Positions 7,135 through 63,790 of a DNA stretch of 64,000 nucleotides are shown in pieces (the stretch's first letter is position 1; every line of letters starts with the position of its first letter). The notes under the pieces are model-generated. The model was not told the origin of the DNA. It saw only the letters and a list, made by a program, of their open reading frames with translations, and did no database searches. This DNA is from Myripristis murdjan (taxonomy: Eukaryota), in NCBI RefSeq assembly GCF_902150065.1, contig NC_043987.1:1625386-1689385 (forward strand), given 5' to 3'. Both the position numbers and the translations under genes were made by a program.

Positions 7135-7629
7135 TTAAAAGTCTGTGGTTCCATGAAAAACCATCAACTGCTGAAGAAGCACTTTGTTCAGTGGATTGTT
7201 CTCTATTTGGAAAAAGAAAAGAAAAGAAAAGAAAAGTACCTTCATTGAACTGGCCCAGCCAAGAACTGTTCTGAAAAAGGTTCTTTGGAGAGTTTTTTTG
7301 GTTTGTTTTGGGTTTTGGTTCAAATTCACCCCTCAAAGAACTTTTCGATGGGTTAAGGGATTCTTTAAAGAGTCATTGAAGAAATGGTTCTTTAAAGCTG
7401 GGGCAGGTGACTTTGCAGAGTGGGTGGACTTTTGTTGACTATGTGAACTCAAGCAGCTCAAACTGCCCCCAACTGAGATTCAGCCCCTCGTCCAGTCCAA
7501 TGCAGTGGGGGAGACGGGGCTGGCAGGGAAACTCCAAATGACAGAATAATTGAATAACTGAAGTGATTCGAATGAGATATTTGGATCAGATTCCACCGAG
7601 GTTATTACAGGGACAGTTCAACCATCTTG

Positions 7630-7785
7630 AGAAATATGATATCTCACTTCCCTCCAGCTGTTCTATAGGACAGTAGTGGTGCTCTCTTCCTCTCATTGTT
7701 ACTGAGTGCTGGATACTGGCTGGATGCTCCACATGCTAACTGTTAGCCTCCTGCCACTGAGCTGAACTTCCCTCCTAACCTTGAT
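7630..7785 (+). mobile_element. SINE-like element copy (TLCD3B intron 2)
   Basis: Sequence ccagctgttctataggacagtagtggtgctctcttcctctcattgttactgagtgctggatactggctggatgctccacatgctaactgttagcctcctgccactgag. Confidence 0.65.
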
Positions 7786-9381: not shown

Positions 9382-9642
<261 letters not shown>

Positions 9643-10262
9643 TAAGATTTAATTTAACAGTGTTAATGTCCTCAAGGGATTGTTCACCCTATTTGAATAA
9701 TTTGATGTTATCCCCCAGCTGTTGTGTAGGACAGTAGTGGTGCTATCTTCCTCTCATTGTTACTGAGTGCTGGATACTGGCTGGATGCTCCACATGCTAA
9801 CTGTTAGCCTCCTGCTATAAATTGGAATAACCTTGACTGAATTCAGGATTAGTGGTAGAAAACACTAATCTTGCCTTTGCTCATGAGATAAACTGCTATA
9901 ATCATGAAAGTGCAGAGATTTCAGCTGTTATTCTTGTCATCAGTGTCAAATGTTCTACATGCTTTTATCACTTGATTAATTCAGTGAGCTTTCAGTGCAC
10001 TTATTGTTGGCCACTTTATCCCTCTGGTTGCTGACAAGCTTTAAGACAAAAGACTAGTCTGCTTAGCGAGGGCTAGTGATAATCCCTGCCTTATGTGATC
10101 TGTGAGGTGAGTGACAGCTGATAGTGGAAACAGACAGTTAATCTGATCCGAATCCTCCTGCATGCCATGGAAGACAAAGCATAATTTGTGCATTGATAAA
10201 TATGTGTCTTTAGCCTATTTAAAGACAGAGATGGGGGAAGCACAACTAATGTCTAGCAGCAA

Positions 10263-15416: not shown

Positions 15417-16709
15417 AATGCTCATGGCTCCCATGCTACTACTTTATATGTGCACTGAAACACTAAACACTTTGTTAATATTTCACATGAAAAGGGCATA
15501 TTGTACTGCTGATCCTTTGCTTGCAATAAAGTTTTTGGTGAAAAACTACAAGCGCTTAGCTTGACACAGCACATACTGCGCAGTAAACCACGTGACCGCA
15601 TACTGTTTCTTCCGGGATCACAACACTGCAACACGCCCACTCGGTCCTAACCCAGTCCAAACACTGTGAAAACATCCACATCAGAAGTCACAAACTGCCT
15701 GACTGGGGACCGAGCCGTCTGCCTCTCGTAAACTAGTGCCAGCGCCCAAAAGGACAAGGTAGGGGCGCTCCAAAGCAACTCATGTCTCAGCCTAAAAAGT
15801 TGAGAACGGGTTGCCATACTCAATTAAAAATATGAGAGTTTAACCTCGCCCTGCGTATTGTCAAAGCTGCATGCCTGCTATAAAGTGTCTGAACATGAGG
15901 TTTGAATAGATAGGTGGCAGACTTCAGATCGGCATGCACCAAACATAGCAAGCAGCGCTTATTATGATCAAATCTGAACTTTCACCAGTGGTTCTCCTGT
16001 TATTGCGGCAATGCGCAGCCCTTAAAAAACAGCGGAGGGCGCTGGCAAACACTGGGAGGCAATGATAAAAGTTGAGATTTAATTAAAATGAAGAGCTGTT
16101 TGGTGTATAAGACATATGCCGCGTTGAAGTGCGTCTGCTTTGGATTGTTAAAATGTCACAAGTCACTACGTGTCTGCATTGGTATTGAGTCGACAAGCGA
16201 GGCAACATTGAACTGATCAGATTTTTTAATGAGATTCGGCGCCGTTTTATTGAAACAAAGTGTATCGGGGGTTAGCATCGACTGAAACATTTGTTTCTTT
16301 CCCTTAGCGAATCAGCCATTTGAAATATTCCTAAAGCATAGGCTACAGTTTCAGTAAGAAGAACTCAAGTGGAAAATTATAATTTTCACAATGTCATAGT
16401 CAATTAAAAAAAAAAGTGGTCAGTGAAATCAAATTGAGAGAATACACATCTGAGGGTGCTAGGCACAAAATGGAGTATATCTTGACTGGAGCTACTGTGA
16501 AAGGGCTGGACTCCCAGCTGGAGCAGATCACTGTGGGAGACTGATGCTGGGCCTGCTACAAGGAAGTGGGCAAAGTGCGTCAGCCCTTTGCCCTGACAGC
16601 AGTCTTTATGATCTGCAATAGGCAGTAGAGGCCCAACACTTCCACATTTGCATGCAGGTGATGTTTCCCTGTGGCTCATGTAGGCTTCCCCTCTCGCTCT
16701 GTGTTGTCG

Positions 16710-17079
<370 letters not shown>

Positions 17080-17399
17080 TATCCAGAATAGTAGAACCAT
17101 GAAAAGCTGAGCATTATAGGCAGCAGGAGAGGAAACGTTATGGCAGAGCAGTTGGACTGGATTGGATTAGATTGTCTAGGTGTTCCTGATAAAGTGGCAC
17201 AACCCTCCCAGTAGACCAGTTGTAGCAGGTAACAGCTGCTTGTCTGAGCCTTAAAGTCAATTTGTATGTCTGTTGGTATGAAACCTGGTTTCAGTAATTG
17301 AATCCAGAATTTCAGCAGTTTCGTTAGTGCATAGCTGGGCTTGCACTCCACATGGGACCACACTTTAAGGGACAGCCATTATTTCACTTCCCCTCTCTA

Positions 17400-17600
17400 C
17401 TGTTCTGTTCTGTGCTTTGTTCCTCTCGAGTGCTGGATACTGGCTGTACACTGTTCAGTGGCAGGAGGCTAACAGTTAGCATGTGGAGCATCCAGCCAGT
17501 ATCCAGCACTCAGTTACAATGAGAGCAAGATAGCACCACTACTGTCCTACACAACAGCTGGAGGGAAGTGAGATATCACATTTCTCAAGATGGTTGAACT
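17400..17600 (-). mobile_element. SINE-like interspersed element (about 190 bp), full-length copy, reverse orientation
   Basis: Consensus, forward orientation: ttaaagggatagttcacccattttgaaaa..gtgatattatttcacttccccccagctgtt.taggacagtagtggtgctatcttcctctcattgttactgagtgctggatactggctggatgctcca(c/a)atgctaactgttagcctcctgccactgaggtggacttccccccagctaac. At least 15 full or partial copies occur in the window. Confidence 0.7.
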
Positions 17601-18473
17601 GTCCCTGTAATAACCTAGGTGGAATCTGATCCAAATATCTCATTCGAATCACTTCAGTTATTCAATTATTCTGTCATTTTCATATCACATTTTCCATAAT
17701 GGGTGTACTATTTGTTTAATGTATAGTGTGTGACTTAACACATTTATTTTTTCAATTCATGTGATCAGTTAAATGGAAAAAAAGTTCAAAGAAACATTGT
17801 TTCTTCATGCTTGTTTTCAGTCGATTGCTTTGTTTAGCAATCTGTGAATATGTCATCAGTTTGTTTCAGCTGACAGATTGTCACAAAGTTCTCCTAAAAG
17901 CCTGTGACTGCGATGAGTCACTGTTTAAAGACAGTGACTGTCCCACAGTAGCTGCTGTTGAAACAGGCACAGTGGAGTGTATTCTGTGGAATGTGAGTGA
18001 TTGACTTAAACTGACAGACTGAGTGAATTCATCATTTTGTGCTGTGTGTGTGAACCTCAGATTAGTTTGTGCAGTAGGTGTGTTTACATACCTGAAGGGT
18101 GTGTCTGACGTTTGACCAAGAGAGGGAACAATCACAACCAAATTTGAGTGACATACTCCAACAGGGATGGGCAGTCACGTGCCACGGAGGGCTGGGAGTC
18201 AAGCTGAGCCCAGGTCAGCCCCCGGCACGCCGTTTCATTGGCTGGTTGTTCCTCTCTGGCTGAATGTGTGTTAATCAATGAAAACTGACTTGAATGGAAA
18301 TCTGCAGACTCTTGACCCTCCGTGGCACATGATTACTCATTCTTATCCGACAAAATGTTTTTCCTCAAATGTTCAGATATTCTTGCACTGATTGCTTGAA
18401 TGGGGGTTATGTTTTTGCCTCATTCTGTCTGTTTGTTTGTAAGCAGGATATCTGCTTAAAAATGTATGTATGG

Positions 18474-19860: not shown

Positions 19861-21117
19861 AAGAAGGCACACAACTTTCCAATGGATTCATGTCACATGG
19901 CAAAATTTGGATGAATTTGTATGACTTCCAAATGGATTCATATAACACCGCGAGATTATGTTGAAAACTTGGTTATGAGACATAGAAGAGCAGCTTAACT
20001 TTTCACACTGATTTATCAGACAGCAGCGGGTGTGGCCAGTCACAAGGTGAAGAACTCCAGCAACAGACATACTCCCTAATTCAACCACATACAAATAGCT
20101 GTTTAATGTTTGAATTTATGAAGCAAAAAACAGTATCTTCAATTAAAAGCATAAAAAATAAGCACTGACAAATGTGTCATTTGGTCAGCAACATGAAGTG
20201 GAAAGGGCGGATCCTGGACTGAGTACAATGGGCATGTAAGCTGAAATCAGTGGTTACAGGCGTGTCCTTCCACCAGATAACATTTATAGGCCTGCTTGAA
20301 TTGTAAAATAGAGGTTATTGGTCTAATTTTACATGTGACCTCATTTTCATATGAAAACATGCTCTCCAGTCTGATCATAGTAAGCCAGTATTGGAATAAG
20401 TGCACGTGAAACTGATGTAGTGATGCGTTCCTGTCTTGTGTCGTGTCTTGGAAGTAAGCAGTAAGTGCTGATGGAGAATTACTATTTTGGATCTGAAAGT
20501 AGAACTGGATTGTTGGTATAGTCCTGAAAACTCAGGGCGTTAGAATGTGAGAGTGCAGCGGTGAGTCGGGGGGGGGGGGGGATGCCATGGATCTTATAAG
20601 CTCTATTGTGTAATCTTGCCATTGGTTCAGTTGGTTCCTTTGTGGTGAGGGTTCAAATTGTCAGACAGCAGGATATTGTTGAAAGAATGATTATATGTAC
20701 ATAAGATTCATTTCCATAGCTACACGGACAACACACAGCTGTATATGGTGTTACTCTATATGTGTTAATTTTCAATCCCACATAAAGAAGGTGACCAGAG
20801 CAGCTTTCTTTCATTTAAGGAATGTTACTAAGGCATGGTCTTGGTAACAAGATGCCAAAAAACTAGGTCGTGTATTTATTTCAAGCAGACTGGGAAACTG
20901 TAACGCTCTTTTGACTGGTCTGCCAAAACAATCCACTGATGAACTTTGATTAATTCACAACTCTGCTGCCAGACTTTGAACTGGAACAGGACAGAGAGAG
21001 CAGATGAGCTGCACCGGCTCCCTTCTTTGGGCTTGATTTAAACAACTTCTTTTACTTGTTTACAGGCTGTTAATGGTTTGCACCAAATGATGGAATTCCT
21101 TACTTCCTTATTCTTTT

Positions 21118-22393
21118 CACTGATTCTTGGGAATTTGGATAAATCATGTCCCACTAAGAAAAATGCTATTTCTGTTTTAATGAATAAAAAGAATCAAGGG
21201 CATAATCAGGGGGTCCTTTTCAAATTTGTAAGGTTCTTTTATAGGTTTATTTTTAATTTTTATTAATTTAACGATTATATGTTGGCCCATGGCCTATAAA
21301 ACCAGCTGTCTTCGGATAGGAGATAATAATTTCAACTTGATTAAAACAACAAAAAGTAATAATTTAATTGAATAATATATTTACCACATGAAAGAGTACA
21401 TCATAATATGTATTAAAAACTACAAACGATGAGTTTTGAACAATATTTACTATTTTGTGGTTGCTCAAAATGTGTCCCACATATTCGTCACCACCGTCAG
21501 ATATATATTTAAAAAATAATAATAAAAAAACTACAAGGTCAGTTTCATTCCTGAGGAGCCCTTTTCAAACCTTCAGCTCTACTGCATGCTTCAAGACCGC
21601 TCAGGCTCCTGGAAGTTTGCTGTTTTCTCTTAAATTTCTTCATATTTTTGGACACTGCTACTGTCACAACCATAACATGTCAACACTGTCACTTTGTATA
21701 AAAAATATTAAATTAGATTATGGAATAAATGTATACTTTTTAAGAAGAGGTCTGATGCAGGTAGCAACAGGAGGGAAACAAGCTGGCTAATGTGAACAAC
21801 TCGTATATCATGTGAAAGAGCAGGTTTTTGTCTCCACCGTCAGACGTCACCACCGTCAGGTTTTCTGTGTGACGGTGATGACTGAAGTCTGAAAAATGCT
21901 TATAACAGAGCTCAGGATTGTTATTTTTTGTACCAAATAGTTAAATAAAGTTGTTAAGCAAGAAGCCATTGACTTGAGTGGTATAACTTTTGGAAATGTA
22001 TGTTTTAATGAGGCAACTGTCACCACCGTCAGATTAGTGTCACCACCGTCAGAGGCACTTATATTGGTTTTAAATGAATATGCTTACAATATGTTTCTTT
22101 GGTGCTGTTGAGTTATTAAAGTAATAGTCTCTTTAATACAAAAATATGTTTTTCAAAAAAAAAAAAAAAAAAACATTACGGTGACGGTGTTGACAAAAAC
22201 AAAGTAGCCTAATAACTGGAAAAATTCTATCCTATTGTATAAAAAAAAATGCAAAATGAGGAGGTTGCACCGGTACATTGCTGAACAGCCAAGACCTTGG
22301 TCTATAATGATATACCTTCAGATTTTATAATTTAACACACTTTTTTTTTTTCAAAATTAAAACCTGTTTTATCCAAATTCCCAAGAATCAGTG
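21118..22393 (+). mobile_element. TIR DNA transposon copy A (1276 bp, nonautonomous): 26-bp TIR CACTGATTCTTGGGAATTTGGATAAA, 4-bp duplication TTTT
   Basis: Perfect terminal inverted repeats cactgattcttgggaatttggataaa and tttatccaaattcccaagaatcagtg. The copy is more than 90% identical over its full length to 32250-33507. Internal CACCACCGTCAG motif occurs at least 7 times in both orientations. Confidence 0.8.
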
Positions 22394-22688
22394 TTTTATT
22401 CTCTTCTTTTACATATTTTATATTTTTTTATGTCCTCCTTTGTTTTACATTTTTGTCTTCCTTTGTTTGTACATATTTTACCGTTTCTGTATCTCAGTGT
22501 CTTTTAGCTCCATCTTTTATATATCTTACTGACATTTGTTTTTGCTGCTGCTGTCGTCTGTTTTTCAGTTGATTGCTTGGTTTTATGGTGCAGGATTTGC
22601 ACTTGTTTGAAATTGCCTGTTTTAGTCAGTTGTTTTTTCACTTTATTGCAAAGCACTTTGAGGTACACCCCCTGTATAAAAGGTGATA

Positions 22689-22727
<39 letters not shown>

Positions 22728-23084
22728 TAGATATGTTTCTGAGACAGTATGGATGAGATATGGTCTCATTATTTAGCTGTTAATGAGCTGGACAACAAAG
22801 GCAGCACAATACAAGAAGGAGGATAACAGCAGAAGAAAGCTTACAGCAAATGGGGTTGAAATAGTCATAGCCACATTAGGTCAAAGGCATGGATGAAAAG
22901 TTTGGGAGGAGAGAATAGATCAGAGTGTTGTCAGGGCACGCAATATTGGCAATATTAATTTTTTTACTGTGATTGTAATTATCTGCTAAATTCAGCATCA
23001 CTTTTGTGTTATTAGCTTTTTTTGTATATATATTATATATATTTGTATATAGACGTCTGTCCTCTCTGTCTGCTAGGCTTCTAG

Positions 23085-23251
23085 ATGACATCCAAGAAGG
23101 CAGGAGACCGAGGGCTGGAGATGGAGGGGCTGATTGGCGCGTCAATCATCCGCATCCCGCCCCACCACTACATCCATGTGCTGGACCAGAACACCAACAT
23201 CGCTCGTGTGGAGATTGGACCTCTCACTTACATCCGCCAGGACAATGAGAG
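23085..23251 (+). CDS. mvp: Major vault protein, first coding exon (a second in-frame ATG at 23121 is an alternative start)
   Basis: ORF 23085-23330 gives ...[37 protein letters not shown], the conserved MVP N-terminus (human [36 protein letters not shown]). Donor AG|gtcagt. A possible acceptor ctgtctgctag at 23078 suggests an upstream non-coding exon. Confidence 0.9.
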
Positions 23252-23719
23252 GTCAGTCGATACAGATGCCTCCTTCAAACAGGAAAGAGGACATTTTGAA
23301 GGGGATCCATTTCAGAAACGTTCACAATAAATTACCGCTTCAAAGTCTCGAGATATTCCTTTGACAGCTGAAGCAGAAATGTGTCCTCACGTCTTCAGGG
23401 CGTTTCCCAACTGAATCAGGAGACCGGTTGTTACATTGTTAAATTATGGATTGGTTTGATTTTTTTTCCACACACATAATTAATCGAACAAAGCAATGTG
23501 GGATCAGCTGTTTCCTTCTGCAGTCAGAAATTTGGAGCAAGGAAGGATGTCTTTCCATGTTCATGTTTTTCCTGTAGTTGAGATCAGATTCTGTCTAAGA
23601 AGTTTGACTCCAGATATTTGCTCCATAACTCAGTGACAAGGTGTGAAAGCCACTTCAGAATAAGAGCGGTCTTTATGGGCTGTACAGGCAGACATTCATT
23701 GGAAAGTTCATGAAGCTCC

Positions 23720-23810
23720 TGTTACTGAGTGCTGGATACTGGCTGGATGCTCCAAATGCTAACTGTTAGCCTCCTGCCACTGAGGTGGACTTCCCCCCAG
23801 CTAACATTCT
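23720..23810 (+). mobile_element. SINE-like element 3' half (MVP intron 1)
   Basis: Sequence ctgttactgagtgctggatactggctggatgctccaaatgctaactgttagcctcctgccactgaggtggacttccccccagctaac. Confidence 0.65.
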
Positions 23811-24152
23811 GAAACATAAATTGTTCAAATTGTTATATAAACAAAGTGTGAGTTTGATGATGTGTAGCAGAATTGAAAATTATCCCCCCCCCAAAAAAAA
23901 TCAGTGGTAGATGACCTATGACAGGCAGGTTTATTTAATTAGATTCTTTTTGATTTAACAAAACACTCTACAAACCCTCTGAACAGAATTCCGCTAATTT
24001 CTTTGCTTTTGTCTTTTTTGTGAATTTGTTGGTAATTTTCTGTTTTCTTGTAGTGCATTTACTAATTTGGGGCTTTGTAAAAATGTGCTCAGCCTATCCG
24101 AGTGCAGATTATGTGACCTGATCCTGCTTCAACCCTCCTTTTCTTTTGTCAG

Positions 24153-24348
24153 AGTGCTGTTTCCTCCGGTTCGTATGACCATGGTGCCGCCGCGTCACTA
24201 CTGTGTGATCGCCAACCCTGTAGCCCGGGACGATAACGGCCAGGTCCTCTTCGACCAATCTGGTCAGGCCAAACTGCGCCATGCCGACCTGGAGATCCGC
24301 CTGGCCCAGGACCCGTTCCCCCTCTACCCAGGAGAGGAGATCAAGCAG
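24153..24348 (+). CDS. mvp: MVP coding exon 2
   Basis: Acceptor ttcttttgtcag|A, phase-2 join giving Arg, and donor CAG|gtttgt. Translation [65 protein letters not shown]. Confidence 0.93.
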
Positions 24349-25332
24349 GTTTGTGGCTTTGCTATGGCACCAACACTCAAACCATCTGAGTGGCTCCATA
24401 TGTATTTCAAAGTTCAAACTGAAGAGAGAGGTAGAAATGAGTTTAAAATGTGTAGAGCTGTAAGTTGTAAAACTATCATTTAAAAAACAACAACAAATAT
24501 CTATCTGTCTATCTAAAAAGATACAGTGTCATCGTCCCTGCCCCTTAGCTTGGGCTTGACCTGTTCAGTTCCTTCAAAATGAGGTTTGATATTAAATGAG
24601 GTTAATTTTATCTTCTTTTATCGTCTTTTAATGTATAGTAATCAGGATGTTGCACCAGCATAAGTCTAGCCAGATGGACACTATCATATAAATGACGCTT
24701 TTGATTTTGCATGAGATGACACTTCTGATCAGGATTTCTTTGCCATTAATGGGGTAAGAAAAGATTTCACATTTTTGGTGCACAGTGGTCCCTCGTTAAT
24801 CGCAGGAGTTACGTTCTAAAAATAACCCGCAATAGGCGAAATCCGCGAAATAGTCAGCTTTATTTTTTACAATTATTCTAGATGTTTTAAGGCTGTAAAA
24901 CCCCTCACTACACACTTTAGGCAAGCTGAACACATTCTGTACTGTACAGGAGACACGGCACGGAGGAGATTGATTGACAATGGTCTACAGTCCCTTAGCC
25001 AATCAGGATGCAGAACACAATGCGCTGTAAAAAAAAAAAAAAAAAAATGCATGCAAAATTGAACAAAAAAAATCCGTGAAACTGCGAGTCCGCAAAAGGT
25101 GAACCGCGTTATAGCGAGGGACAACTGTATTGACAGAAAAATTATGAAAAAACTAGCAAACAGTCGTTAAAAAAAATCCCGATGACCAGAAACTTGTCAC
25201 CAGTACATAAACATCAAGACAGAAAAAGTGGATGGTGATCGTGTCCAGGCAGCAGCAGCCTGTGTGCCCTCCTGCCCTCTTTGCTGCTCCTCCTTTGATT
25301 CATGTATCACATTTCTTGTGTGCCTCTGTCAG

Positions 25333-25456
25333 GATGTGACGCCTCTGCAGATCGTGTACCCAGACACCGCTCTGCGTCTGCAGGCCCTGCTGGACTTCGA
25401 GGAGGAGGGGGGCGTGAAGAGGGTGGCAGGAGATGAGTGGCTCTTCGAAGGGCCGG
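25333..25456 (+). CDS. mvp: MVP coding exon 3
   Basis: Acceptor tgcctctgtcag|GAT and donor G|gtaaaa. Translation [42 protein letters not shown]. Confidence 0.93.
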
Positions 25457-26292
25457 GTAAAACGTCGCCAAAGCGCCTCATTGCCTAACTCTGTGAAAAT
25501 GAATTTGTTTGTATATATTCAGTGATTTTCCCCAAGATTTTGATCCTGTCAAGGTGAAAAAAAAAGCCTCTGAAACGCTTTCAGACCACCACAGGACAGT
25601 AAACCTCTGATAATAAAATAAAACTCTCTCACTGAAGGCCAGACTGGTGTAAAGTTTAAAATATCCTTCACCTATTTAACCTTTTTTTTCTTACCCTCTG
25701 AACAAAATTTGTTTTATTTCTATTTATTTCTATATTTTATATACATTTTAATATCTGTTTTGTTGTAATTTTGTAAAAATTCTCTTGTAACTTATAACAA
25801 TCATGATCATGATAATGATCTTCTTCTTCTTCATCTTCTTCTTCTTCTTCTTCTTCTTCTTCCAAATTTGTTTGGGTAATTTTCGTGTTATTTAGTCTTA
25901 AATATACAATTATAATAATCATAAACACAGTTTTCTTGTAAAAACTATTTTGCTAATTTTCTGACAAGTTTATTCTAGTTTTTAATAATTGTTTTCCAAT
26001 ATTCTGGTTATTTTCTGATAATTTGTTACTAGTTTTGGTACTTTCCTGGTAATTTGCTGGTAATTGTCTTGTAACTAAATTTTAAATACACAGAGAGAGA
26101 AATCAAGTAAATTTGCTTAGGTTTCAAAGTGGTTTGGAAAATAACATTACCTCAGATTCACTGTTTAGCGGTTTAAAATCTTAGTCAGCAACTTCATGAT
26201 TATCAGTGAGTTTTACTTTAATCACAGTCTTGATCTTGTTAGAATTATCGAGTTTTGCAATGAACCATGCCATGCGACCTTTGGCCCCACAG

Positions 26293-26424
26293 GGACCTAC
26301 ATCCCAAGGAAGGAAGTAACAGTGCTGGAGACCATCAAGGCCACTGTGATCAGAGAGAACCAGGCCATCCGGCTGAGGGCCCGCAAGGAGGGTGTGGACA
26401 GAGGAGGGGTCCGCAGAGTCACTG
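26293..26424 (+). CDS. mvp: MVP coding exon 4
   Basis: Acceptor ttggccccacag|GG and donor G|gtacgc. Translation [44 protein letters not shown]. Confidence 0.93.
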
Positions 26425-27189
26425 GTACGCCGGGCCACCCAGCCTCCATGTTGGAGCTCAGGCACCCTCAGACGTTCATTCCAGGAGTCCCACAGCAGAG
26501 AGGAATAGCAGAGTAAAATGAGTGAAAGAGAAGAGAAGGATCCAGTCTTGTTTTCCAAACCAAGGAAAAAATGTGTTTCTGCCATTTCTGCCAAGACGCA
26601 CTATTATGATCACAGTGACAAATACCAACATGGAGTTAGAGATGCACACACGCCCCCACTGCTGCCTATAGTGTTTGCAATTATATTTATTTTTTTGTTG
26701 TTGTTTTTAATGACTAAATGTTCATTTGTAAGCCAGTGAGAAAGCTGTGACTTCACTCCAGTCAAAACAGATGCATAAAGTATTACACTTGTAAACATGA
26801 GTAATAAAGCAAGACTGGCACCAATCAGACTGAAATGATCACAAAATAAACAATAAACAAGTGAATCTAAGATAAGAGTAATACACGCATAAACACACAT
26901 ACAAACACAGAAACATATGAAAAAAATCTCATATTTCTATAATATTTCTATAATGATTTAATAGCGTTGCTGCTGTTGAAAATATGCATTCAGTCTATAT
27001 TGTTGCTTGTTTGCTTTGAGGATTATTGACATGCTCTCTCAACACTGAAAATTCTGCCAATGAATTTTCCCACTGTAAATGAAACTAAACAAATCTTGCC
27101 TCGTTGAACAGCTGAGTCCAGCTGGACTGAGGGAATTCTGTGCTGGGTGCAGCCCTGCTTTTCTTACCTGAATGTGTGTGTTGTTGCAG

Positions 27190-27284
27190 GCGAGGAGTGG
27201 CTGGTCAGGAAGGTGGGAGCCTATCTTCCAGGAGCCCATGAAGAGGTCATTGACATTGTGAATGCTTTCATCCTCACTGACAAG
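27190..27284 (+). CDS. mvp: MVP coding exon 5
   Basis: Acceptor gttgttgcag|GC and donor AAG|gtgact. Translation [31 protein letters not shown]. Confidence 0.93.
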
Positions 27285-27462
27285 GTGACTCAGCGCTTTG
27301 CTTTCTATCTGCTCTGGCTGACAAGGCGGAGCGATACTGTGGAAAGTTAAAAAGTAGACAGTGAAAGAATGAAACAAAGTGACAGTATACCCCAGGCAAT
27401 TTAGAGTGCAGTTATTCTTGTATTTTGTGGATGATATTCAGTGTAAAATTTAAAGGGTTAAT

Positions 27463-27501
<39 letters not shown>

Positions 27502-28075
27502 TGAAGCAAATAGGAAAAAGGCAGATTTTAAGCCAAAACTCTGAATGTGATCTTGAACAGTTTATTTTTGCAGCATCTGTTACCATGGCGATGAAGCCGG
27601 GTCAAAAGAGAGCCGCCTTCATGACACGGCAAACTCTGGCTTTTGACTCAACTTACCTTGCTAACCTGTTAATCTTGCTTCGTAGTACAGCCCTCTGATG
27701 CAAAATGGTCCAAAAAGGGTTGCAACATGTTAAGCTGGCCTGTACTTGGTCATTAATAGATTTTGAAAGATGTCACATTTTATATCCCACCAAAGCTGAC
27801 CCCAATCGCAGTTGGCAGCATACATAAAGGCCCTTTTTTCCTAGTTTGGTACACACAGGAGGAACTGAAGGTTAACATTTGGAGCATCCAGCCAGTATCC
27901 AGCACTCAGTAACAATGAGAGGAAGATAGCACCACTACTGTACTACATAACAGCTGGGGGGAAGTGAAATAATATCATATTTACAGAATAGTTGAAAGAA
28001 GGGCACCCTTTGTTGAGCCGTAGGACTTCCCTCTCATCTCTGTCCTCCCTCCCCATCTCCTCTCCATGTCATCAG

Positions 28076-28312
28076 AATGCGCTGCATGTCCGCGCTCTGC
28101 GCCCCTTTAAGGACAGTGGTGGGCGAGACCGGCGTACGGGGGAGGAGTGGCTCGTCACCATGGCTGACAGGGAGGCCCACATCCCTTCAGTGGCTGAGGA
28201 GGTGGTGGACGTGGTCAGCGTGACCACTCTGAACAGCAGGCAGTACTGCGTGATCCTGGACCCGGTGGGACCCGACGGGAAACCTCAGCTTGGCCAGAAG
28301 AGGGTGGTCAAG
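28076..28312 (+). CDS. mvp: MVP coding exon 6
   Basis: Acceptor ccatgtcatcag|AAT and donor AAG|gtgagg. Translation [79 protein letters not shown]. Confidence 0.93.
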
Positions 28313-30013
28313 GTGAGGAGGACCCATCCCACAGGCTGGCTGTTCACTGATCACTAAAAGTACGGACGGACAAAAATGACACCAAAACTAAATAAAACGA
28401 AAAGTGAATTTTTGTTGACAAAACTATGACAAAATATCATGACATTAGAGACAAAAATGCCACAAATGAACCAATGAAAACAGAACTCCTGAGCTCAGTT
28501 TAGCAAGGAAGACATATGCAAACTTTACTTTTGATATTAAGAATAAAAACAAAAACTAGAAACAAAAGGCAAGAAGCTGTGTTGAGGAATGCACATCAAT
28601 CTGTGTGTACAGGTCACTGCCAAATCATGTAATGAGGAAATCACAGAGAAAAAATGTGCACAATAACTGAGTAGAATTAAATTAAAAGTTTCATTCTCGT
28701 CGACTAAAACCACTGCAGTTCTTGTCAGCTAAGACCAGACAAAAACTAACAAAATTCAAATGACTAAAATGTGAATAAAACTAAAATGCATTTTAGTCAA
28801 ATGAGTAAAGCTGCAACACCTCACAATACATCCTACACCACAGCTCAACATATTATACACTGAAAAGACCCTACATAAGGTACAGTTATCATATTACAAA
28901 AATCAACTTCAAGTTCAAGTTTCAAGTTTATTTCCTGTCTGCCAAAAATACACAGTTTAAGTACTTTTAACACGTGCAGACACAAAGCAGCATACAATAT
29001 GAACACTCACATATTTCAAAAATCACGTAAAATAGATAATAATAAATGTTGTAAGGTAAAATGCAAAATTCAGATAAAATAAATAGGTTAGTAAAAGAAG
29101 TAAAATCAGAAGAGCAAATGGTGTAAAAGTGTCTGCTTTAAAAAAAACGGACCACCTCAGGGTAAGAATTGTCTCGGGAACTGTTACAAACCATGTGACA
29201 AGGAACCCTCAAACAGCTTTCAGCTCATAAATGATGTTGACCTGAACAATGTAGGTTATTCAGATAGTTTTTAGCCTCCAGTGTCCATGTAAAAAGCATG
29301 CAATCCATGAGGCCTGAACTTTCAGAATTAACTCTGAGTGAATTCCAGGAGGTGTTTTTGGCCCGACAGGCGTCTTGTACGTTCTGGCAGAACATTTCCC
29401 CATTCGCCAGCTTTCAGTGGGGCGGGAAGCACAGATGGCTAGACTTGACCCACGTGTGTAGTGCAAAGCATTATTGTTATTTGAGTGTACAATAGTATAA
29501 TCAGAATCTTATGAACTAGATAGATAGATAGATAGATAGATACTTTATTCATCCCGAAGGAAATTCACAGTTTTTCAGCAGTATCCACAGATTACAAGAT
29601 TAAATAAAAATAAATAAATAAATGAGATCTAAGTACAACACACTAGAGATCTAGGTACAACAGTGTGCAAATAACAATGTGCAAAAAAACGTGTGCATAG
29701 GTGTATAAAATGTGCATAGAAAATAAATAAAATGTGCATGTAGGTCAATGTGCAAATTTAGAAGAAATATACAGTATACACAGATGATAAATAGCAGTAA
29801 GCAATATAAACACTATAAACAAGGGATATAAAAAAAAAAACTAGTCCTATTAAGTCCTAGCCCCAGTGACAGCCAGTCACTAACAGTCAGACACCCAGTA
29901 TGATTAAAGAATTAGCTCCCCCAAAAATTAATTTTGCCACTACCAAATTAGCCCTCATGTCAGAAACATCTCTAATTTTCTTTTTCCTTCTTCCTCTCTC
30001 TCTCGGTTGGTCA

Positions 30014-30139
30014 GGGTGAGCGCTCCTTCTTCCTGCAGCCAGGAGAGCACCTGGAGCATGGCATCCAGGACGTGTACGTGCTGTCAGAGGAGGAGGGCCT
30101 GGTGCTGAGGGCTGTGGAAGCCTTCAACGACACCGAGCA
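30014..30139 (+). CDS. mvp: MVP coding exon 7
   Basis: Acceptor ctcggttggtcag|GGT and donor CAG|gtgagg. Translation [42 protein letters not shown]. It is too short to appear in the >=60 aa ORF track and was found by homology walking. Confidence 0.9.
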
Positions 30140-30810
30140 GGTGAGGGCAAGTCAGCTCAGGACAACAGCAGGAACACTGTTTCCATGACTTTGTTTTTGG
30201 AAACACTGCTCCCATTGCAGTCCATGATTTGTTCACTTACAGAAAATGCCGCTTAACCTTATAAAACATAAAATGTGGAATAATAAAGTTAGGAATCAAA
30301 GGAAGTCACTCTTTGACAGAATATGTTCAGCCTGACCAACAAGATGGTTAGACTGAACATAGTCCATGTTTGTGTGAGACCTACCATGTTTCTTTGCATC
30401 CAACGTAGAACTGACAGCTACTAACAAATCACTAACAGTACTACTACACTAATGCACTACCTTGCAGACAAACGGCATAGTGAAAAGGGGTTCAGCCAGT
30501 TTTTAAAAATGTGATATTATTTCACTTCCATGTAGGTGGTGCTATGTTCTTCTCATCATTACTGAGTGCTGGATACTGGCTGGATCTGCCAAATGCTAAC
30601 TTTTAGCCTCCTCCCATTGAAGTGGACTTCCCCCCGCTAGATTAAAAAAAAAAATAAAATAACCGCCTTTATCAACAGATGTCAGATGCCAAGACACTAA
30701 TTATATGTGCTGCATCTGTCCTAGGGAGAATTTGATGGTCACTTTAAGGTTTTTGACAACAGATGTGTACCAGTAGACATTTTTCACAGCAGCCATTTTG
30801 AGTTGAAATA

Positions 30811-30986
30811 GCAGGGTAAACACACGTGTCGCTAATAATAATAATTAAGATTCCATTCAACTCAGTTCAGGTCTGACAGAGCCAGGGTCCTGCTCTTGTG
30901 TATGCTGGCTGACCAGAAAGGCTCTGAACACTTAAACAGAACGGGACTGTAATTAATATCATTAGTAACACCTGTATTTACCCTGC
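30811..30986. mobile_element. MITE family with TIR GCAGGGTAAACACnnGTGTTACTAATGA, copy 1
   Basis: Termini gcagggtaaacacacgtgtcgctaataat ... attagtaacacctgtatttaccctgc. Related copies at 34132-34490 (with an internal insertion), about 48790-48962 and about 55417-55580. Confidence 0.65.
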
Positions 30987-31077
30987 TAGTTCATGTCAGA
31001 CTGTTAGCTTACTGTAAGTCTCCTGCCGCTGAGGTGGACCTCCCCCCCAGCTAACATTCTTAAAAATAAAAAATGAA

Positions 31078-31540
31078 ATATGAAATACCGTATTTCAACA
31101 ATTAATCGCCCGGCTGCAAATAGCCGCCGGGTTCTTATAAACGCCTGGGGTCTGCACCCATTTTGCTTATTAAACGCCCACCCGAATAACCGCCGGGGCG
31201 ATTATTTGCATTATATTGAGGTAACCCAAAATAAGGCTATTCACCTTATTTTTGCAGCAGTAAACAGTTATCCGCACAATAACTGTGCAGCACTTCCGTT
31301 TTCTGTCAAAATAAGAGAGCTAGCTAACGTTAGAAAAAAAGGGTGCACCGTAATCTTAAATTGCCCGACTGTAAATATGTTGGACAGTAACTGTCATCAC
31401 GATAATGGCCTGGTGCAGGTCTGTGTAAAAATAAATAAAGGCCTGCAGCGAATAGCCGCCTGGTTCTTTTAAACGCCTGGGGTCCAAGTTGATTTTGCGT
31501 ATTAAACGCCCGGGCGATTAATTGGTGAAATACGGTAAAT
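31078..31540. mobile_element. MITE (about 460 bp) with about 30-bp TIRs AAATACCGTATTTCAACAATTAATCGCCCGG
   Basis: Left terminus tgaaataccgtatttcaacaattaatcgcccgg. Right terminus cccgggcgattaattggtgaaatacggtaaat. Internal direct repeats gccgccgggttctt(a/t)taaacgcctggggtc...attaaacgccc occur twice. Confidence 0.65.
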
Positions 31541-32249
31541 AATTCTCTCCAATGGGAATGGGTGAACTATCCCTTTAAGTGACTACTTTTGCTGATTAAA
31601 CCTGCTAGGGTGGTGATGTTAAAAATATTGGCTGACTGCTAACATTATAGGTCAACATTATGGAGCTTCTTTGGTCCAAAGACCACTTTTGGCCCCTGAT
31701 TTCAATCTGCTTTGTCTTTGGGGTATGATGTCAATCAAATGTTGCCACTAAGTAAACAAAGCAAAGATTAATGAGTTGACTCACTCTAACCCTGCAACCA
31801 GAAAAAATGTAGCTGCAAATCCTTATAATTGCAGACATGTCAGACACCTGTTAGACTTTGGCAGAGCGAAACAGGTAGAGGAGGTGGCCTGGGGAAAAGA
31901 AAAAGGATGCAGAAGGAAGGAGAGGAGGTTAGTGGCAGAGGAACTTTTTATTCAGTTTATTTTAGGTTTTATGCAATCTCAGATGTTTTCTGGTTTTCTT
32001 TACTGTGCTCACTCTTTGTCCAGGTTCTCTGTGGAGCAGCATGATAGAAATAGAAAGGCACGCAGGAGAGGGAGGGGCTGCTAACAAAGCAGGCCAAACA
32101 AATTTGCAGTCTTAACTGGTTTAGATGGGTAGTCTAGTACAACCGGTTGATAACAGAGGAAGGCTGTGGTGTTTAGACACACACACGCTGCGCTCACTAC
32201 ACACACACACACACACACATGCACACAAATAATAAAACATATTACAGCT

Positions 32250-33507
32250 CACTGATTCTTGAGAATTTGGATAAATCATGTCCCACTAAGAAAAATGCTA
32301 TTTCTGTTGGAAATTTGCAACATTTTAATGAATAAAAAGAATCAAAGGCATAATCAGGGGGTCCTTTGCACATTTGTAAGGTTCTTTTATAGGTTTATTT
32401 TTAATTTGTATTAATTTAATGATTATATGTTGGCCCATGGCCTACAAAACCAGTTGTCCTCGGATAGGAGATAATCATTTCAACTTGATTTAAAACAACA
32501 AAAAGTAATAATTTCATTGAATAATATCTTTACCACATGAACAAACGATGGGTTTTGAACAATATTTACTATTATTTTGTGGTTGCTCAAAATGTGTCCC
32601 AGATATTCGTCACCACCGTCAGATATATATTTAAAAAATAATAATAAAAAAACTACAAGGTCAATTACATTCCTGAGGATCCCTTTTCAAACCTTCAGCT
32701 CTACTGCATGCTTCAAGACCACTCAGGCTCCTGGAAGTTTTCTATTTTCTCTTAAATCTCTTCATATTTTGGGACACTGCTACTGTCACAACCATAACAT
32801 GTCAACACCGTCACTTCTGTATAAAAAATATTAGATTAGATTATGGAATAAATGTATACTTTTTAAGAAGAGGTCTGATGCAGGTAGAAACAGGGCGAAA
32901 ACAAGCTGGCTAATGTGAACAACTCATGCTGATCATGTGAAAGAGCAGGTTTTTGTCTCCACCGTCAGACGTCACCACCGTCAGGTTTTCTGTGTGACGG
33001 TGATGACTGAAGTCTGAAAAATGCTTAGAACAGTGCTCAGGATTGTTATTTTTTGTACCAAATAGTTAAATAAAGTTGTTAAGCAAGAAGCCATTGACTT
33101 GAGTGGTATAAATTTTGGAAATGTATGTTTTAATGAGGCGACTGTCACCACCGTCAGATTAGTGCCACCACCGTCAGAGGCAGTTAAATTGGTTTTAAAT
33201 GAATATGTTTACAATATGTTTCTTTGGTGCTGTTGAGTTATTAAAGTAATAGTCTCTTTAATACAAAAATCTGTTTTTCAAATTAAAAAAAAAACATTAC
33301 GGTGACGGTATTGACAAAAACAAAGTAGCCTAATAACTGGAAAAACCGATTTTATGAAAAAAATGCAAAATGAGGAGGTTGCACCGGTACATTGCTGAAC
33401 AGCCAAGACCTTGGTCTATAATGATATACCTTCAGATTTTGTAATTTAACGCACTTTTTTTTTTTCAAAATTAAAACCTGTTTTATCCAAATTCCCAAGA
33501 ATCAGTG
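32250..33507 (+). mobile_element. TIR DNA transposon copy B (1258 bp) in MVP intron 7, 4-bp duplication AGCT
   Basis: Same TIRs and internal organisation as 21118-22393. Flanked by AGCT|...|AGCT. Same orientation as copy A. Confidence 0.8.
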
Positions 33508-34131
33508 AGCTACTCTAGTAGAAGGGACTCTTGGGACCTTCAACTGACAACATTCCAGATCTAACCTTTACCATCAGCACTTCATTTCTAACTTAAACCT
33601 CCACCACAACCCACATCTAACCTTAAAGGGATATTTAGAATTTATTGACCCAAGTTTGTATGACTTAGTCGCTCCTATTTATATTGATACATGGATAATA
33701 TCTCCACAGACGACTCCTGCAGTCAGAGTTGTGGCTAGTTGTGGGATTGAACAGTTAGCTAAATCAACAGCATGTAACTGCTAATATTTTGAGACACAAA
33801 TAACAGGTTATAAATGTTTAAAGAGACAGTTAATGCATTTTGAAAAAAAAAAAAAATTCTCTTACCCCCAGCTGTTTTGTAGGACAGTAGTGGTGCTATC
33901 TTCTTCTCATCATTACTGAGTGCTGGATACTGTTTGGAACTATTAGCCTCCTGTCATTGAAGTGGACTTTTTAAAAAAATAATCGTCTTTATCAACATAT
34001 ATCAGATGCCAAGACACTAATTACAGACACTAGATCTGTCCTTGGGAGCATTTGATGGTCACTTTAAGGTTTTTGGCAACAGATGTGTATCAGTAGACCT
34101 TTTTTCACAGTGGCCATTTTGAGTTGAAATA

Positions 34132-34490
34132 GCAGGGTAAACACAGGTGTTACTAATGATATTAATTAAGGGTCCATTCAGTTCAGTTCAGGTCTAAAGG
34201 TGTGTTCAGACCGAAGATGAGGCAGGTTTGAACACGGTGCGATTACATACAAAGTCAATTCAACGACTGGGATTTGCGGCGGGCGACGCCAATAACATGA
34301 ATTTTCCTGTTGCAAATGAAGCGAACATGCGAAACTCGCGTCATTCACATATCTGCATCAGTCGAAATATTTCAACTTGAGTGAAAAATTCGCGGCCAGG
34401 GTCCTGTTCTTGTGCGTGCTCGCTCAGTGGTACACTTAAACGGAACGTGACTGCATTCAGTATCATTAGCAACATTTGTGTTTACCCTGC
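34132..34490. mobile_element. Same MITE family, copy 2 (carrying an internal insertion of about 180 bp)
   Basis: Termini gcagggtaaacacaggtgttactaatgat ... cattagcaacatttgtgtttaccctgc. About 40 bp of 5' flank is shared with copy 1, so the unit may be longer. Confidence 0.55.
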
Positions 34491-35198: not shown

Positions 35199-35417
35199 CA
35201 AGAGGAGGAGGAAGAGGAAGAGGAGGAGGAGCTGATGGAGGAGAGGGCCAAGCGTTCACGGAGGAGTGGTGTCCTCCGTCGGCCTGGAGATCGCTGGATG
35301 TTGCGTGGGCCGATTGAGTATGTCCCCCCTGCCACCGTGGAGGTGGTGCTGAAACGCCAGGCCATCCCATTGGACGAGAATGAGGGCATTTACGTCCGGG
35401 ACATTAAGACAGGAAAG
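35199..35417 (+). CDS. mvp: MVP coding exon 8 (begins with a poly-Glu tract encoded by a GAG/GAA repeat)
   Basis: Acceptor ctctttgccag|CAA and donor AAG|gtgagt. Translation [73 protein letters not shown]. The exact acceptor inside the GAG repeat is uncertain by a few codons. Confidence 0.85.
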
Positions 35418-36675
35418 GTGAGTTTGTGTTTTAGACCGAAGCTCCCCACTGACCAAAACTCTCCAGCTTGTTTTTCTGCCTTTTAATAAATTTAGTAAGG
35501 CTGTGATTACTATGATGGAGGCATAGTATTTCTGCCTACATCCAAATGACAACAAATGAAAGTCAAAAGATAGATACACAACACAAGTCATGTCTTTACA
35601 GCCATCAAGGGAGACAACAAACTCCAATTTCTAATTTATTTATGACCTATATCTATTGAGTGCAGAGCTATGTTGACTCAGAACGATAGTTTCTTATCAG
35701 CCAGGGCCAGTTTTTCAAAACTGGATTAACAGTGAACAGATTCACTTTATATTTTTTTCTAAAACATGGGAAAGAGGGCAATGACCAATTTAGCAAGAAA
35801 TGAATTAAAAATTACAAGAAAATGATACAAAAATGAACCTAAAATGGGGGGGAAAACAATCCAAAACGAAATGACCTGAAATTAAGCAAGAACAAAAAAG
35901 AAAATCTCCTGAAAATTTAAAAAAAACAAGAAAATATATTTTCCTTTTTTTTTTAACTATATAATAATTATGAATACTGTTTTCTGGTTTTTGCTTCCAT
36001 TTTTTGTTAATTTTCTAGTAATATTATCCTTTTTTTGTAATGTTCAGATGTTCTAATGTTAAGTTACTCATTACCCTTTTCCCCATGTTTTTGAGAGAAA
36101 TCAAGTCCATTTTCTCAGGTTTCAAAGGGTTAAATACTTGTGAAAAATCTGTGAACTCCTTTCACAAACATCAAACCGCAAGCATTTAACCACCAGAAAG
36201 ATGACAGAAATCCAGATTTCAGAGGATTCATTCCTGTTTTTGGGTTTCTTGAAACCCAAAGCACAGATCTGGATAAATGTAATACCAGATATCTCACAGA
36301 TATGTGAAAATTCCCCCCAAAAAACTGTTTCTCATAACTATAATTCTTATAATTTCAAAAAAAAAACAAACAAAAAAAAACAAAGCACTAAGAAAATCCC
36401 CCCAAAAATGACAAATATAAAGGAAATATACCTGAGTTTTAGACATTCACCCTCCTCTAAGGGTTAGGGGATTCAAAGGGAAAGAAACTTATCTTCACAT
36501 AAAATAACATTCCAAAGATAAACCATCAGACTATCTGCTGTGGTGTACTTTTATGAGCTGCTCATGAGATATGCAAACATAGGAATTCAAGTGTATCAGT
36601 GAGGAAGCATTGTGCTGAGATGCTCTCATGCTGGAAGTTTGAGCCCTCACCTCATCACGGCTTGCTGCGCTGCAG

Positions 36676-63609: not shown

Positions 63610-63790
63610 TTTAAAGGAATAGTCCACCCATTTTGAAAAAAAAAATGGATATTTCACTTCCCCCCCAGCTGTTCTGTAGGACAGTAGTGGTGCTGTCTTC
63701 CTCTCATTGTTACTGAGTGCTGGATACTGGCTGGATGCTCCAAATGCTAACTGTTAGCCTCCTGCCACTGAGATGTACAGCCAGTAATCT
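63610..63790 (+). mobile_element. SINE-like element, full-length copy (+)
   Basis: Same family as 17400-17600. Other copies or fragments: 1540-1600, 2541-2610, 2700-2770, 7630-7785, 9710-9825, 10830-10880, 23720-23810, 27875-27990 (-), 30525-30640, 31000-31070, 33865-33960, 49455-49560, 62180-62300 (-). Confidence 0.7.

Follow-up and report, generated by a model that had tools for sequence, protein, structure and literature searches.

Analysis of the window, that is, the whole 64,000-nucleotide stretch of DNA from the soldierfish Myripristis murdjan examined here, indicated that two similar units, one a short way upstream of and one within the major vault protein (MVP) gene, are very likely non-autonomous, internally deleted copies of a cut-and-paste DNA transposon of the Sola2 superfamily. 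As the two copies encode nothing themselves, their superfamily was assigned through DNA homology with coding relatives from other genomes: both align to longer elements whose transposase matches Sola2, and they are therefore considered deletion derivatives of a Sola2 element. Thus, a transposon with 4-bp target site duplications (TSDs) whose type had been unknown can now be classified without invoking a new superfamily; it adds a new, ordinary member to a superfamily already known and is an ordinary kind of mobile element. The positions of the features are listed in Table 1.

Table 1. Positions of the two elements, their internal features and the host gene in the window
Feature	Position	Strand	Basis or remark
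Copy A, non-autonomous (very likely Sola2) element, 1276 bp	21118-22393	+	TIRs, TSD, alignment to longer relatives
Copy B, another copy of that deletion derivative, 1258 bp	32250-33507	+	Internal junctions of copy A, different flanks and TSD
Copy A TSD, TTTT	21114-21117 and 22394-22397	.	Fifth base C on the left, A on the right
Copy B TSD, AGCT	32246-32249 and 33508-33511	.	Fifth base unequal on the two sides
Copy A left TIR	21118-21143	+	26 bp, 0 mismatches; right TIR 22368-22393 (-)
Copy B left TIR	32250-32275	+	1 mismatch, G13A; right TIR 33482-33507 (-), perfect
5'-side motif site 1 (core of GTCACCACCGTCAG)	21489-21500	+	Copy B 32611-32622
5'-side motif cluster	21832-21880	.	Direct 21832-21843 and 21848-21859, inverted 21869-21880; copy B 32957-33005
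Copy A deletion junction 1	21883-21916	.	Transposase ORF region here in relatives; copy B about 33008-33041
3'-side motif pair	22021-22052	+	22021-22032 and 22041-22052; copy B 33146-33177
Copy A deletion junction 2, poly-A run	22153-22181	.	Alignment to relatives
3'-side inverted motif site CAACACCGTCAC	22181-22192	-	Copy B 33303-33314, 3 mismatches
MQNEE coding sequence ATGCAAAATGAGGAG	22249-22263 in copy A	+	GT directly after; putative TE-derived alternative first coding exon of MVP
MVP coding exons	23085-47618	+	tblastn; host gene context

Boundaries and divergence of the two copies

A preliminary description of this DNA had proposed two elements in the same orientation with duplications of TTTT and AGCT, and their coordinates were confirmed exactly; the plus strand was defined by the direction in which full-length relatives carry the transposase ORF. 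As the fifth flanking base is unequal on the two sides of either copy, the target duplication is exactly 4 bp. The 26-bp TIR, CACTGATTCTTGGGAATTTGGATAAA, had been considered perfect in both copies, which is true for both ends of copy A, but the left TIR of copy B carries a substitution (Table 1). L001 and the Mobula element in L003 have exactly this A13 variant as their right TIR, and the first 12 nt of the TIR, CACTGATTCTTG, are common to L003, L004, L010 and L011. The TIR pattern had four matches in the window (0 expected), and it was absent from the viral contigs scanned. When copy A was compared by BLASTN with the remaining window sequence, no further fragments appeared. Neither copy carries a transposase ORF, no ORF of copy A has homologues, and its longest one (111 aa, spurious) had none in the protein collection searched. 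It should be noted that MITEs are small (typically less than about 800 bp), homogeneous and of high copy number. This label was rejected for the present copies, whose size of 1258-1276 bp lies above that range and which are better described as internal-deletion derivatives.

Comparison of copies A and B revealed 48 substitutions over 1235 aligned columns, corresponding to 96.1% identity without gaps (K2P 0.040) and to 91.4% when the 64 gap columns (9 indel events) were included. Because of this K2P distance the copies are not very recent, and the recent mobility suggested for them earlier, set against 4% substitutions and the indels, was overstated. Elsewhere in the family, L004 and L005, which come from one sample set, are 99.9% identical elements with unlike flanks.

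The window contains no more than two copies, which lie 11 kb apart in one orientation, as would also be expected if they were products of a local segmental duplication and not of transposition. However, the homology ends exactly at the TIRs, the flanks of the two copies are unrelated and bear separate 4-bp duplications, the same TIR is found in relatives from other species, and the orthologous intron of an outgroup (Centroberyx) does not contain copy B. Segmental duplication thus appears to have a negligible probability, and the original view of the units as TIR transposons holds. In the Centroberyx intron the flanks of site B lie ~26 bp apart with no element between them; the target tetranucleotide is unconserved there, so this empty site cannot confirm the TSD. 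For site A, no alignable upstream sequence was present in Centroberyx. Copy B, or both copies, may stem from local hopping. Unequal recombination between the two direct repeats, which the preliminary description also raised, would be a generic possibility.

Longer relatives and internal deletions

Both halves of the window elements could be aligned to longer relatives in other fish, including manta ray. Three segments of copy A (1-765, 800-1033 and 1065-1276) align at 66-87% to L001, L002, L003, L004, L008 and L010 (67-87% for the five other than L004). Between their arms homologous to copy A, these six sequences encode N- and C-terminal parts of one and the same protein; the middle 504 aa of this transposase are encoded by L009. 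The longer form in related fish elements measures 2.8-4.8 kb and has a transposase of about 860 aa; each window copy retains only the non-coding ends (~0.77 kb at the 5' side and ~0.48 kb at the 3' side). Compared with L002 and L011, about 1.3 kb and about 3.3 kb, respectively, are missing at junction 1; at junction 2, about 220 bp that L001, L002, L003 and L011 have are absent. The two copies have identical deletion junctions, different 4-bp target duplications and unrelated flanks; the same junctions at different target sites point to mobilisation in trans.

The sole intact autonomous element found was a 4800-bp element of Chanodichthys erythropterus (L011, 4883-9682), which is flanked by a perfect 4-bp duplication (ATTG/ATTG, fifth base unmatched), begins with CACTGATTCTTGAGA, the same TIR start as in the window copies, and encodes P0292, an intact and intronless ORF of 861 aa. 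Its non-coding arms are just 54-56% identical to the window copies, and from M. murdjan itself no autonomous partner came to light. Between manta ray and teleosts, the non-coding arms are 71-79% identical and the 26-bp TIR is identical; an old Mobula copy has AAAA and AACA as flanking tetranucleotides.

Superfamily assignment

The primary paper on the Sola superfamily is said to be that of Bao, Jurka and Kapitonov in 2009, and Sola2-1_HM from Hydra reportedly serves as reference element. Reference core sequences of Sola1, Sola2 and Sola3 were taken from the supplement of PMC3985635 (supplementary file 5 for Sola2-1_HM). The RNase H-like core of Sola2-1_HM matched P0292 over its full 130 aa (E = 2e-17, or 3e-18 as a single comparison), the L009 ORF (E = 4e-20) and P0273 (E = 4e-40). 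With the Sola1-1_AP and Sola3-1_HM cores, E was at least 0.002 against every protein tested, and nothing significant was obtained for P0292 or the L009 ORF. The element had previously been called uncharacterised, a label that does not survive these matches to the published Sola2 core.

The relatives' transposase comprises a basic helical N-terminus, a Cys-rich region, an RNase H-like D-D-D core with nearly invariant D478, D559 and D601, and a Tudor-like C-terminus. An AlphaFold model of P0292 built from 11 sequences was poor (pLDDT 54.5), and its Foldseek matches in the PDB were weak (best E = 2.5e-3), comprising an RNase H-like terminase nuclease and Tudor/KOW domains; these fold hits are at most consistent with the Sola2 assignment. 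Pfam searches with the L001 ORF, the L009 ORFs and P0127 were negative, and the coding relatives had no hit of any kind.

Elements of the En/Spm type likewise bear reiterated 12-bp subterminal protein-binding motifs, a similarity that, together with the 5'-CAC...GTG-3' termini and 4-bp duplication quoted as Chapaev hallmarks in PMC4079192, would fit non-autonomous CMC (Chapaev/CACTA) members mobilised by a CMC DDE transposase. Chapaev/CMC was indeed the first guess from the CAC termini and the TSD, and was dropped once the Sola2-type transposase had been found: coding relatives sharing the TIR start and arms encode a protein that matches the Sola2 core (E = 2e-17 to 4e-40), and Pfam matches to CMC transposase domains are absent from them. 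We consider a CMC origin highly improbable.

The duplication size agrees with the Sola2 assignment. Four base pairs had been regarded as unusual, but a citing paper characterizes Sola by a DDD transposase and 4-bp TSDs (PMC10741241), so the size is a hallmark of the superfamily. For Sola2, PMC3627910 gives AT-rich, AWWT-like TSDs. In the small sample of TSDs and single-end flanks available here, TTTT, ATTG, AAAT, ATAT, ATTT, CTAT and AAAA are AT-rich, although only ATAT, AAAT and ATTT are strictly AWWT; AGCT of copy B is not AT-rich and departs from the reported target. The strings DFSEN and HGKG were absent from the Sola2 alignment supplement of PMC3627910, which bears on the assignment neither way.

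Motif arrays

The preliminary description had counted at least seven copies of a short motif in each element. This number holds only when 1-2 mismatches are allowed; as an exact 12-mer, CACCACCGTCAG occurs four times per copy. At the same threshold of 1-2 mismatches, 14 of the 16 matches in the window lie inside the two copies (2.67 expected for the whole 64 kb), and shuffles of copy A contained a mean of 0.02 sites versus 7 observed. The motif extends to 14 bases, GTCACCACCGTCAG, with the consensus GTCA(C/A)CAC(C/T)GTCAG. Its positions and orientations are constant in nine elements from different sources: in every relative, site 1 is located about 360-390 nt inward of the left end (0.94 conservation of its columns versus 0.77 for background), the counterpart of the 3'-side pair in relatives consists of two or three direct sites situated about 540-580 nt before the right end, and all relatives have the inverted 3'-side site about 200 nt before that end. 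In full-length relatives the 5' cluster has a fourth, inverted site, which the window copies lost at the deletion junction. Overall, the motifs are more conserved than their surroundings (0.86-0.94 versus 0.77).

The array is therefore real and family-wide, consistent with the protein-binding sites first suggested, and on the basis of its conservation across the family the repeated 14-base sites probably bind the transposase. In the citing papers from which the Sola hallmarks were taken, we found no description of such arrays for Sola2. The conserved, basic N-terminal domain of the relatives' transposase, RRRRNREYQKKRREK, is reminiscent of a bZIP basic region, which is speculation that Pfam does not support.

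Each site is 0.2-0.8 kb away from an element end, and since the 5' cluster also precedes the ORF by ~0.3 kb, the arrangement would suit a promoter function just as well. The arrays might instead be promoter or regulatory sites for host factors (for example, bZIP proteins) or hairpin-forming structures, a reading of motif function that we regard as possible but rather unlikely. CGTCA/TGACG is the CRE half-site; CGTCA is present in each site, and the junction CAGACGTCAC matches 7/8 of a full CRE. In L011 the 5' cluster is about 310-390 bp upstream of the ATG. A promoter role, however, does not explain why motifs in both orientations also follow the ORF, at distances of about 200 and 540-580 nt from the right end. 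As for hairpins, the complete four-site palindrome of L002 folds at -28.7 kcal/mol (z = -7.6), but the truncated palindrome of the window copies, which lack the fourth site, is weak (z = -1.9), and yet the derivative was apparently mobilised at least twice.

MVP gene context

The gene in the window is MVP of Myripristis murdjan (99% identity to Myripristis murdjan MVP), with its canonical ATG at 23085. Copy A ends 691 bp upstream of this ATG, in line with the 0.7 kb given before, and copy B indeed lies in intron 7, between coding exons 7 (30006-30137) and 8 (35271-35420) as located by tblastn. Two annotated MVP isoforms, P0001 and P0002, have the start MQNEE-GLIGAS, of which the MQNEE part is encoded within copy A immediately ahead of a GT donor.

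An Rfam scan of the window gave no matches. Window matches to an MQNEE-coding pattern were confined to copies A and B, the latter carrying the identical coding sequence at 33363-33377. On annotation evidence only, MVP may thus have acquired an alternative first coding exon from copy A.

Proposed mechanism and implications

In the mechanism that we propose, the transposase would recognise the 26-bp TIRs and excise the element, which would integrate across a 4-bp staggered cut. The GTCA(C/A)CAC(C/T)GTCAG sites would act as extra subterminal transposase-binding sites aiding assembly of the transposition complex, and a single deletion derivative would have moved on at least two occasions, with the transposase provided in trans. 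A broader scenario, which we put forward only tentatively and consider somewhat doubtful, is that the fish Sola2 lineage is still active and horizontally mobile, that the GTCACCACCGTCAG arrays are recognised by the RRRRNREYQKKRREK domain and that copy A has been recruited by MVP to serve as alternative first exon or promoter. The activity and horizontal mobility in this scenario draw on the intact 861-aa ORF with its perfect TSD in Chanodichthys, on the 99.9% identical copies at different sites and on the arms and TIR common to manta ray and teleosts. If this were true, the arrays would be the first defined cis-requirements for any Sola transposon.

To our knowledge, Sola transposition has never been studied biochemically, and the conserved array of 14-nt sites at fixed positions provides obvious candidates for transposase-binding sites. 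In addition, our results document a Sola2 lineage in vertebrates that includes deletion derivatives alongside an autonomous element that appears intact, and flag a possible transposon-derived alternative first exon of MVP. A transposon specialist is unlikely to be greatly surprised, and the value of these findings is modest.

Comparison with known systems

En/Spm (with 12-bp TnpA sites) and Ac/Ds carry subterminal transposase-binding repeats. As in these systems, a short motif in direct and inverted orientation is located inside both ends and kept in non-autonomous derivatives, which is a functional analogy only: the superfamilies are unrelated, and the present sites are further from the ends (0.2-0.8 kb) and putative as binding sites. 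Chapaev/CMC elements share the CAC...GTG termini and a duplication of 3-4 bp (PMC4079192), whereas the relatives' transposase is of the Sola2 and not the CMC type. Similarity was also observed to the Sola2 elements DFa and PPa of Dictyostelium and Polysphondylium, for which PMC3627910 reports 4-bp duplications, TIRs of 12-21 bp and deletion derivatives without most of the transposase gene. Short TIRs, 4-bp duplications and deletion derivatives are thus common to both, whereas Fanzor1 passengers and a preference for AWWT targets are features of DFa/PPa, and the present elements contain no Fanzor. Compared with the Sola2 group as a whole, the present lineage differs in being vertebrate (teleost and ray), in a TIR that begins CACTG, in its 14-nt motif arrays at fixed positions, which the citing papers used here do not describe for Sola2, in a transposase whose basic N-terminal domain is conserved and whose Tudor-like C-terminus is optional, and in having among its three complete duplications one, AGCT, that is not AT-rich; it shares with this group the 4-bp target duplication, the short TIRs and a transposase core that aligns to Sola2-1_HM with the three acidic residues in place.

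Element boundaries and comparison of the two copies

The two terminal inverted repeat (TIR) elements at the major vault protein gene (MVP), copies A and B, lie where the preliminary description had placed them, with exact boundaries (see table), and the TIR pattern matched four times in the whole window against none expected. The 4-bp target-site duplications (TSDs) reported for both were borne out, and their length is exactly 4 bp because the fifth flanking base differs between the left and right sides in each copy. Perfect TIRs had also been claimed for both, which holds for copy A but not for the left end of copy B. In 1235 aligned columns, A and B differ by 48 substitutions (25 transitions and 23 transversions; K2P 0.040); a further 64 gap columns come from nine indel events. 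Identity is 96.1% over aligned columns and 91.4% overall. BLASTN of copy A detected no further fragments of the element elsewhere in the window.

Features of the window and of complete or nested relatives (window positions unless another sequence is named)
Feature	Position	Length	Remarks
Copy A	21118-22393	1276 bp	Perfect 26-bp TIR CACTGATTCTTGGGAATTTGGATAAA; TTTT at either side
Copy B	32250-33507	1258 bp	AGCT at either side; left TIR with one mismatch (G13A)
MVP coding exons (tblastn)	23145-47618, + strand
Canonical MVP ATG	23085		Immediately 3' of a good acceptor (ttctag/ATG)
MQNEE-encoding sequence + GT	22249-22263; 33363-33377		Copy A; copy B
Acceptor, MQNEE isoform	23125-23126		Donor GAG/GTTGCA
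Block AGGAGGTTG(CACCG)	22257-22270; 33371-33384		~125 nt from right end
Motif sites from 5' end	~390 (+), 737 (+), 753 (+), 774 (-), 795 (-)		Counted within the element
Motif sites from 3' end	~580 (+), 560 (+), 540 (+), 200 (-)		Counted within the element
Interspersed repeat copies	7536-7760, 9711-9828, 17455-17679, 23673-23790, 27871-27971, 30510-30627, 33864-33981, 63661-63778	~110-225 bp	Both orientations
Direct repeat pair	30653-30874; 33973-34195	~220 bp	87-88% identity, 3.3 kb apart
Compound (TG)n/(TA)n and (CA)n microsatellites	16689-17130, 32178-32230		Long
L011 element	4883-9682 of L011 (Chanodichthys erythropterus CM044600.1)	4800 bp	One intronless ORF; left terminus CACTGATTCTTGAGACATGGGACAAA, right (reverse-complemented) CAGTGATTCTTGAGAAGCGGGACAAA
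L003 element	6839-10217 of L003 (Mobula birostris CM057580.1)		Another repeat nested at ~9405-10135; flanks AAAA/AACA

Longer relatives and the transposase

No ORFs with homologues were found in copy A or copy B. A TIR scan of metagenome contigs found a longer relative, L001, whose 26-bp TIR on the right is identical and which contains an ORF for a basic 132-aa product, and this ORF served as the lead to further loci (L002, L003, L004-L008, L009 and L010). BLASTN placed positions 1-765, 800-1033 and 1065-1276 of copy A in collinear order along the 5' and 3' non-coding arms of the longer relatives, with identities of copy A in the 5'-arm alignment from 65.7% (L004) to 87.0% (L010). The ORF region of the relatives falls exactly at the junction in the window copies at ~A765-800, and a second block of ~220 bp is missing at ~A1035-1065; both junctions are common to copies A and B.

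L009 covers most of the coding region, in three frames: a basic N-terminus of 198 aa, a middle part of 504 aa containing VHVDFSE, FWSDGPSKQYKN and SHGKGPPDGIGG, and a C-terminus of 138 aa. A HMMER search with the Mobula protein gave 566 matches among 1.84 billion representatives. Some are full-length relatives (684-851 aa) that share this architecture, and through clusters of these we reached P0292, an intact 861-aa transposase from the cyprinid Chanodichthys erythropterus. Its element, L011, has a perfect 4-bp TSD (ATTG/ATTG); it lies inside a CD20-like gene, with an uninterrupted ORF and near-perfect TIRs. L011 is apparently an intact autonomous Sola2 element that may still be active.

The N-terminal 85 aa of the transposase are helical, basic and very conserved (RRRRNREYQKKRREK...) and have no Pfam match. 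Many of the transposases carry a small C-terminal beta-barrel (GDWLAVIYDxNWWLAK...VEFFHPxGP; P0127, P0292 at ~760-825, and the C-termini of P0244 and P0273), for which the best fold matches, themselves weak, were Tudor/KOW domains (SGF29, SMN, Spt5).

Superfamily assignment

Our initial guess was Chapaev/CMC, on account of the CAC...GTG termini and a TSD of 3-4 bp, which are hallmarks of Chapaev (PMC4079192); the transposase points elsewhere. No matching Pfam model was found for the L001 ORF, the L009 ORFs or the related transposase P0127. As references we used the RNase H-like core sequences of Sola1-1_AP, Sola2-1_HM and Sola3-1_HM, published in supplementary data of Majorek et al. 2014 (PMC3985635), and compared them by BLASTP. 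The Sola2-1_HM core matched P0292 with 29% identity over its full 130 aa (E 3e-18 in a single comparison, 2e-17 in the run with eight proteins), as well as the L009 ORF (E 4e-20) and P0273 (E 4e-40). Among all eight proteins, no match fell below E 0.002 for the Sola1-1_AP core (P0292, E 4.9) or below E 0.03 for the Sola3-1_HM core (P0292, nothing below E = 10).

Three aspartates of P0292, D478, D559 and D601, show almost no variation. In a low-confidence model (pLDDT 54.5), which gave weak fold matches only, to an RNase H-like nuclease and to Tudor domains, they are placed where beta-1 ends, where beta-4 ends and where the next helix starts; this predicted placement agrees with an RNase H-like fold and lends it slight support. 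PMC10741241 gives a DDD transposase and 4-bp duplications as hallmarks of Sola, and PMC3627910 describes AT-rich targets for Sola2. Because the transposase core matches Sola2 and the elements agree with the definition of Sola, we classify the window elements, on sequence grounds, as non-autonomous Sola2 elements; they make up a new family, of an ordinary kind, within a known superfamily.

Mobility, age and distribution

The preliminary description was right to regard the units as a transposon. Transposition took place, because copies A and B share the same junctions but differ in duplications and flanks, because L004 and L005 are 99.9% identical elements in different flanks, and because in the intron-7 orthologue of Centroberyx affinis the homologues of the copy B flanks are separated by ~26 bp that contain no element. 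The mobility had been called recent, which is true only in a relative sense at K2P 0.04: under an assumed substitution rate, the insertions probably date back millions of years.

L003 is a manta ray member of the family. It carries a nested insertion of another repeat and is therefore resident in Mobula birostris and old. Its non-coding arms are 71-79% identical to teleost copies, and its right TIR equals the left TIR of copy B (26/26). Protein relatives were also found in sturgeon, anchovy, cichlids, opah, notothenioids and cyprinids. The presence of the family in manta ray and teleosts makes it a candidate for horizontal transfer between fish lineages that are far apart.

MVP context and other repeats

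MVP exons were mapped with a human MVP sequence, used as a tblastn probe only; the joined exons were 99% identical to Myripristis murdjan MVP. Given the canonical ATG, copy A ends 691 bp upstream of it, and copy B falls in the intron that separates coding exons 7 and 8. Two annotated M. murdjan isoforms, P0001 (A0A667YQP8) and P0002 (A0A667Y6S1), start with MQNEE-GLIGAS instead of the canonical N-terminus. Since the MQNEE-encoding sequence followed by GT is limited within the window to the transposon copies, copy A appears, from the annotation, to provide MVP with an alternative first coding exon that splices into the first coding exon of the gene. The block AGGAGGTTG, which does not vary in any family member, even the distant L011, coincides with the splice donor of this isoform.

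The window also contains an unclassified interspersed repeat family, whose copies are as much as 97% identical to one another; several are in introns of MVP, and one follows copy B immediately on its downstream side. The direct repeat pair in intron 7 flanks copy B on both sides and probably represents one more family of repeats. A (CA)n run adjoins the copy B insertion site on the left and is absent from the Centroberyx orthologue.

The conserved motif array

At least seven motif copies per element had been reported, and this holds when up to two mismatches are allowed (seven sites per copy), but the exact 12-mer CACCACCGTCAG occurs only four times in each. At ≤2 mismatches, 14 of the 16 window matches fall within copies A and B, with 2.67 expected for all 64 kb; shuffled copy A gave a mean of 0.02 sites. 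The true repeat unit is ~14 nt, GTCA(C/A)CAC(C/T/A)GTCAG, and its positions are equivalent in every relative. In the alignment of eight independent 5' arms, conservation was 0.86-0.94 in motif columns against 0.77 in the remainder, and few 12-nt stretches are conserved better than the motif columns. In L001 and L004, the variants CTGTCAG and CAGTCAG look like CpG decay from an ancestral CCGTCAG.

As single-stranded DNA, the complete four-site palindrome of L002 folds at -28.7 kcal/mol (z = -7.6). In the window copies the fourth site is gone, removed at deletion junction 1, and the remnant palindrome folds weakly (z = -1.9). The complete palindrome is thus not essential, because a derivative without the fourth site was still mobilised.

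The array noted in the preliminary description is real and conserved family-wide; its proposed role as transposase or DNA-binding-protein sites is argued by analogy. A promoter or host-factor site is a possible alternative, in favour of which the CRE half-site CGTCA is present in every motif site. The conserved array is neat and worth a bench test. We infer that the motif sites (GTCACCACCGTCAG) are candidate subterminal transposase-binding sites, by analogy with those of En/Spm and Ac.
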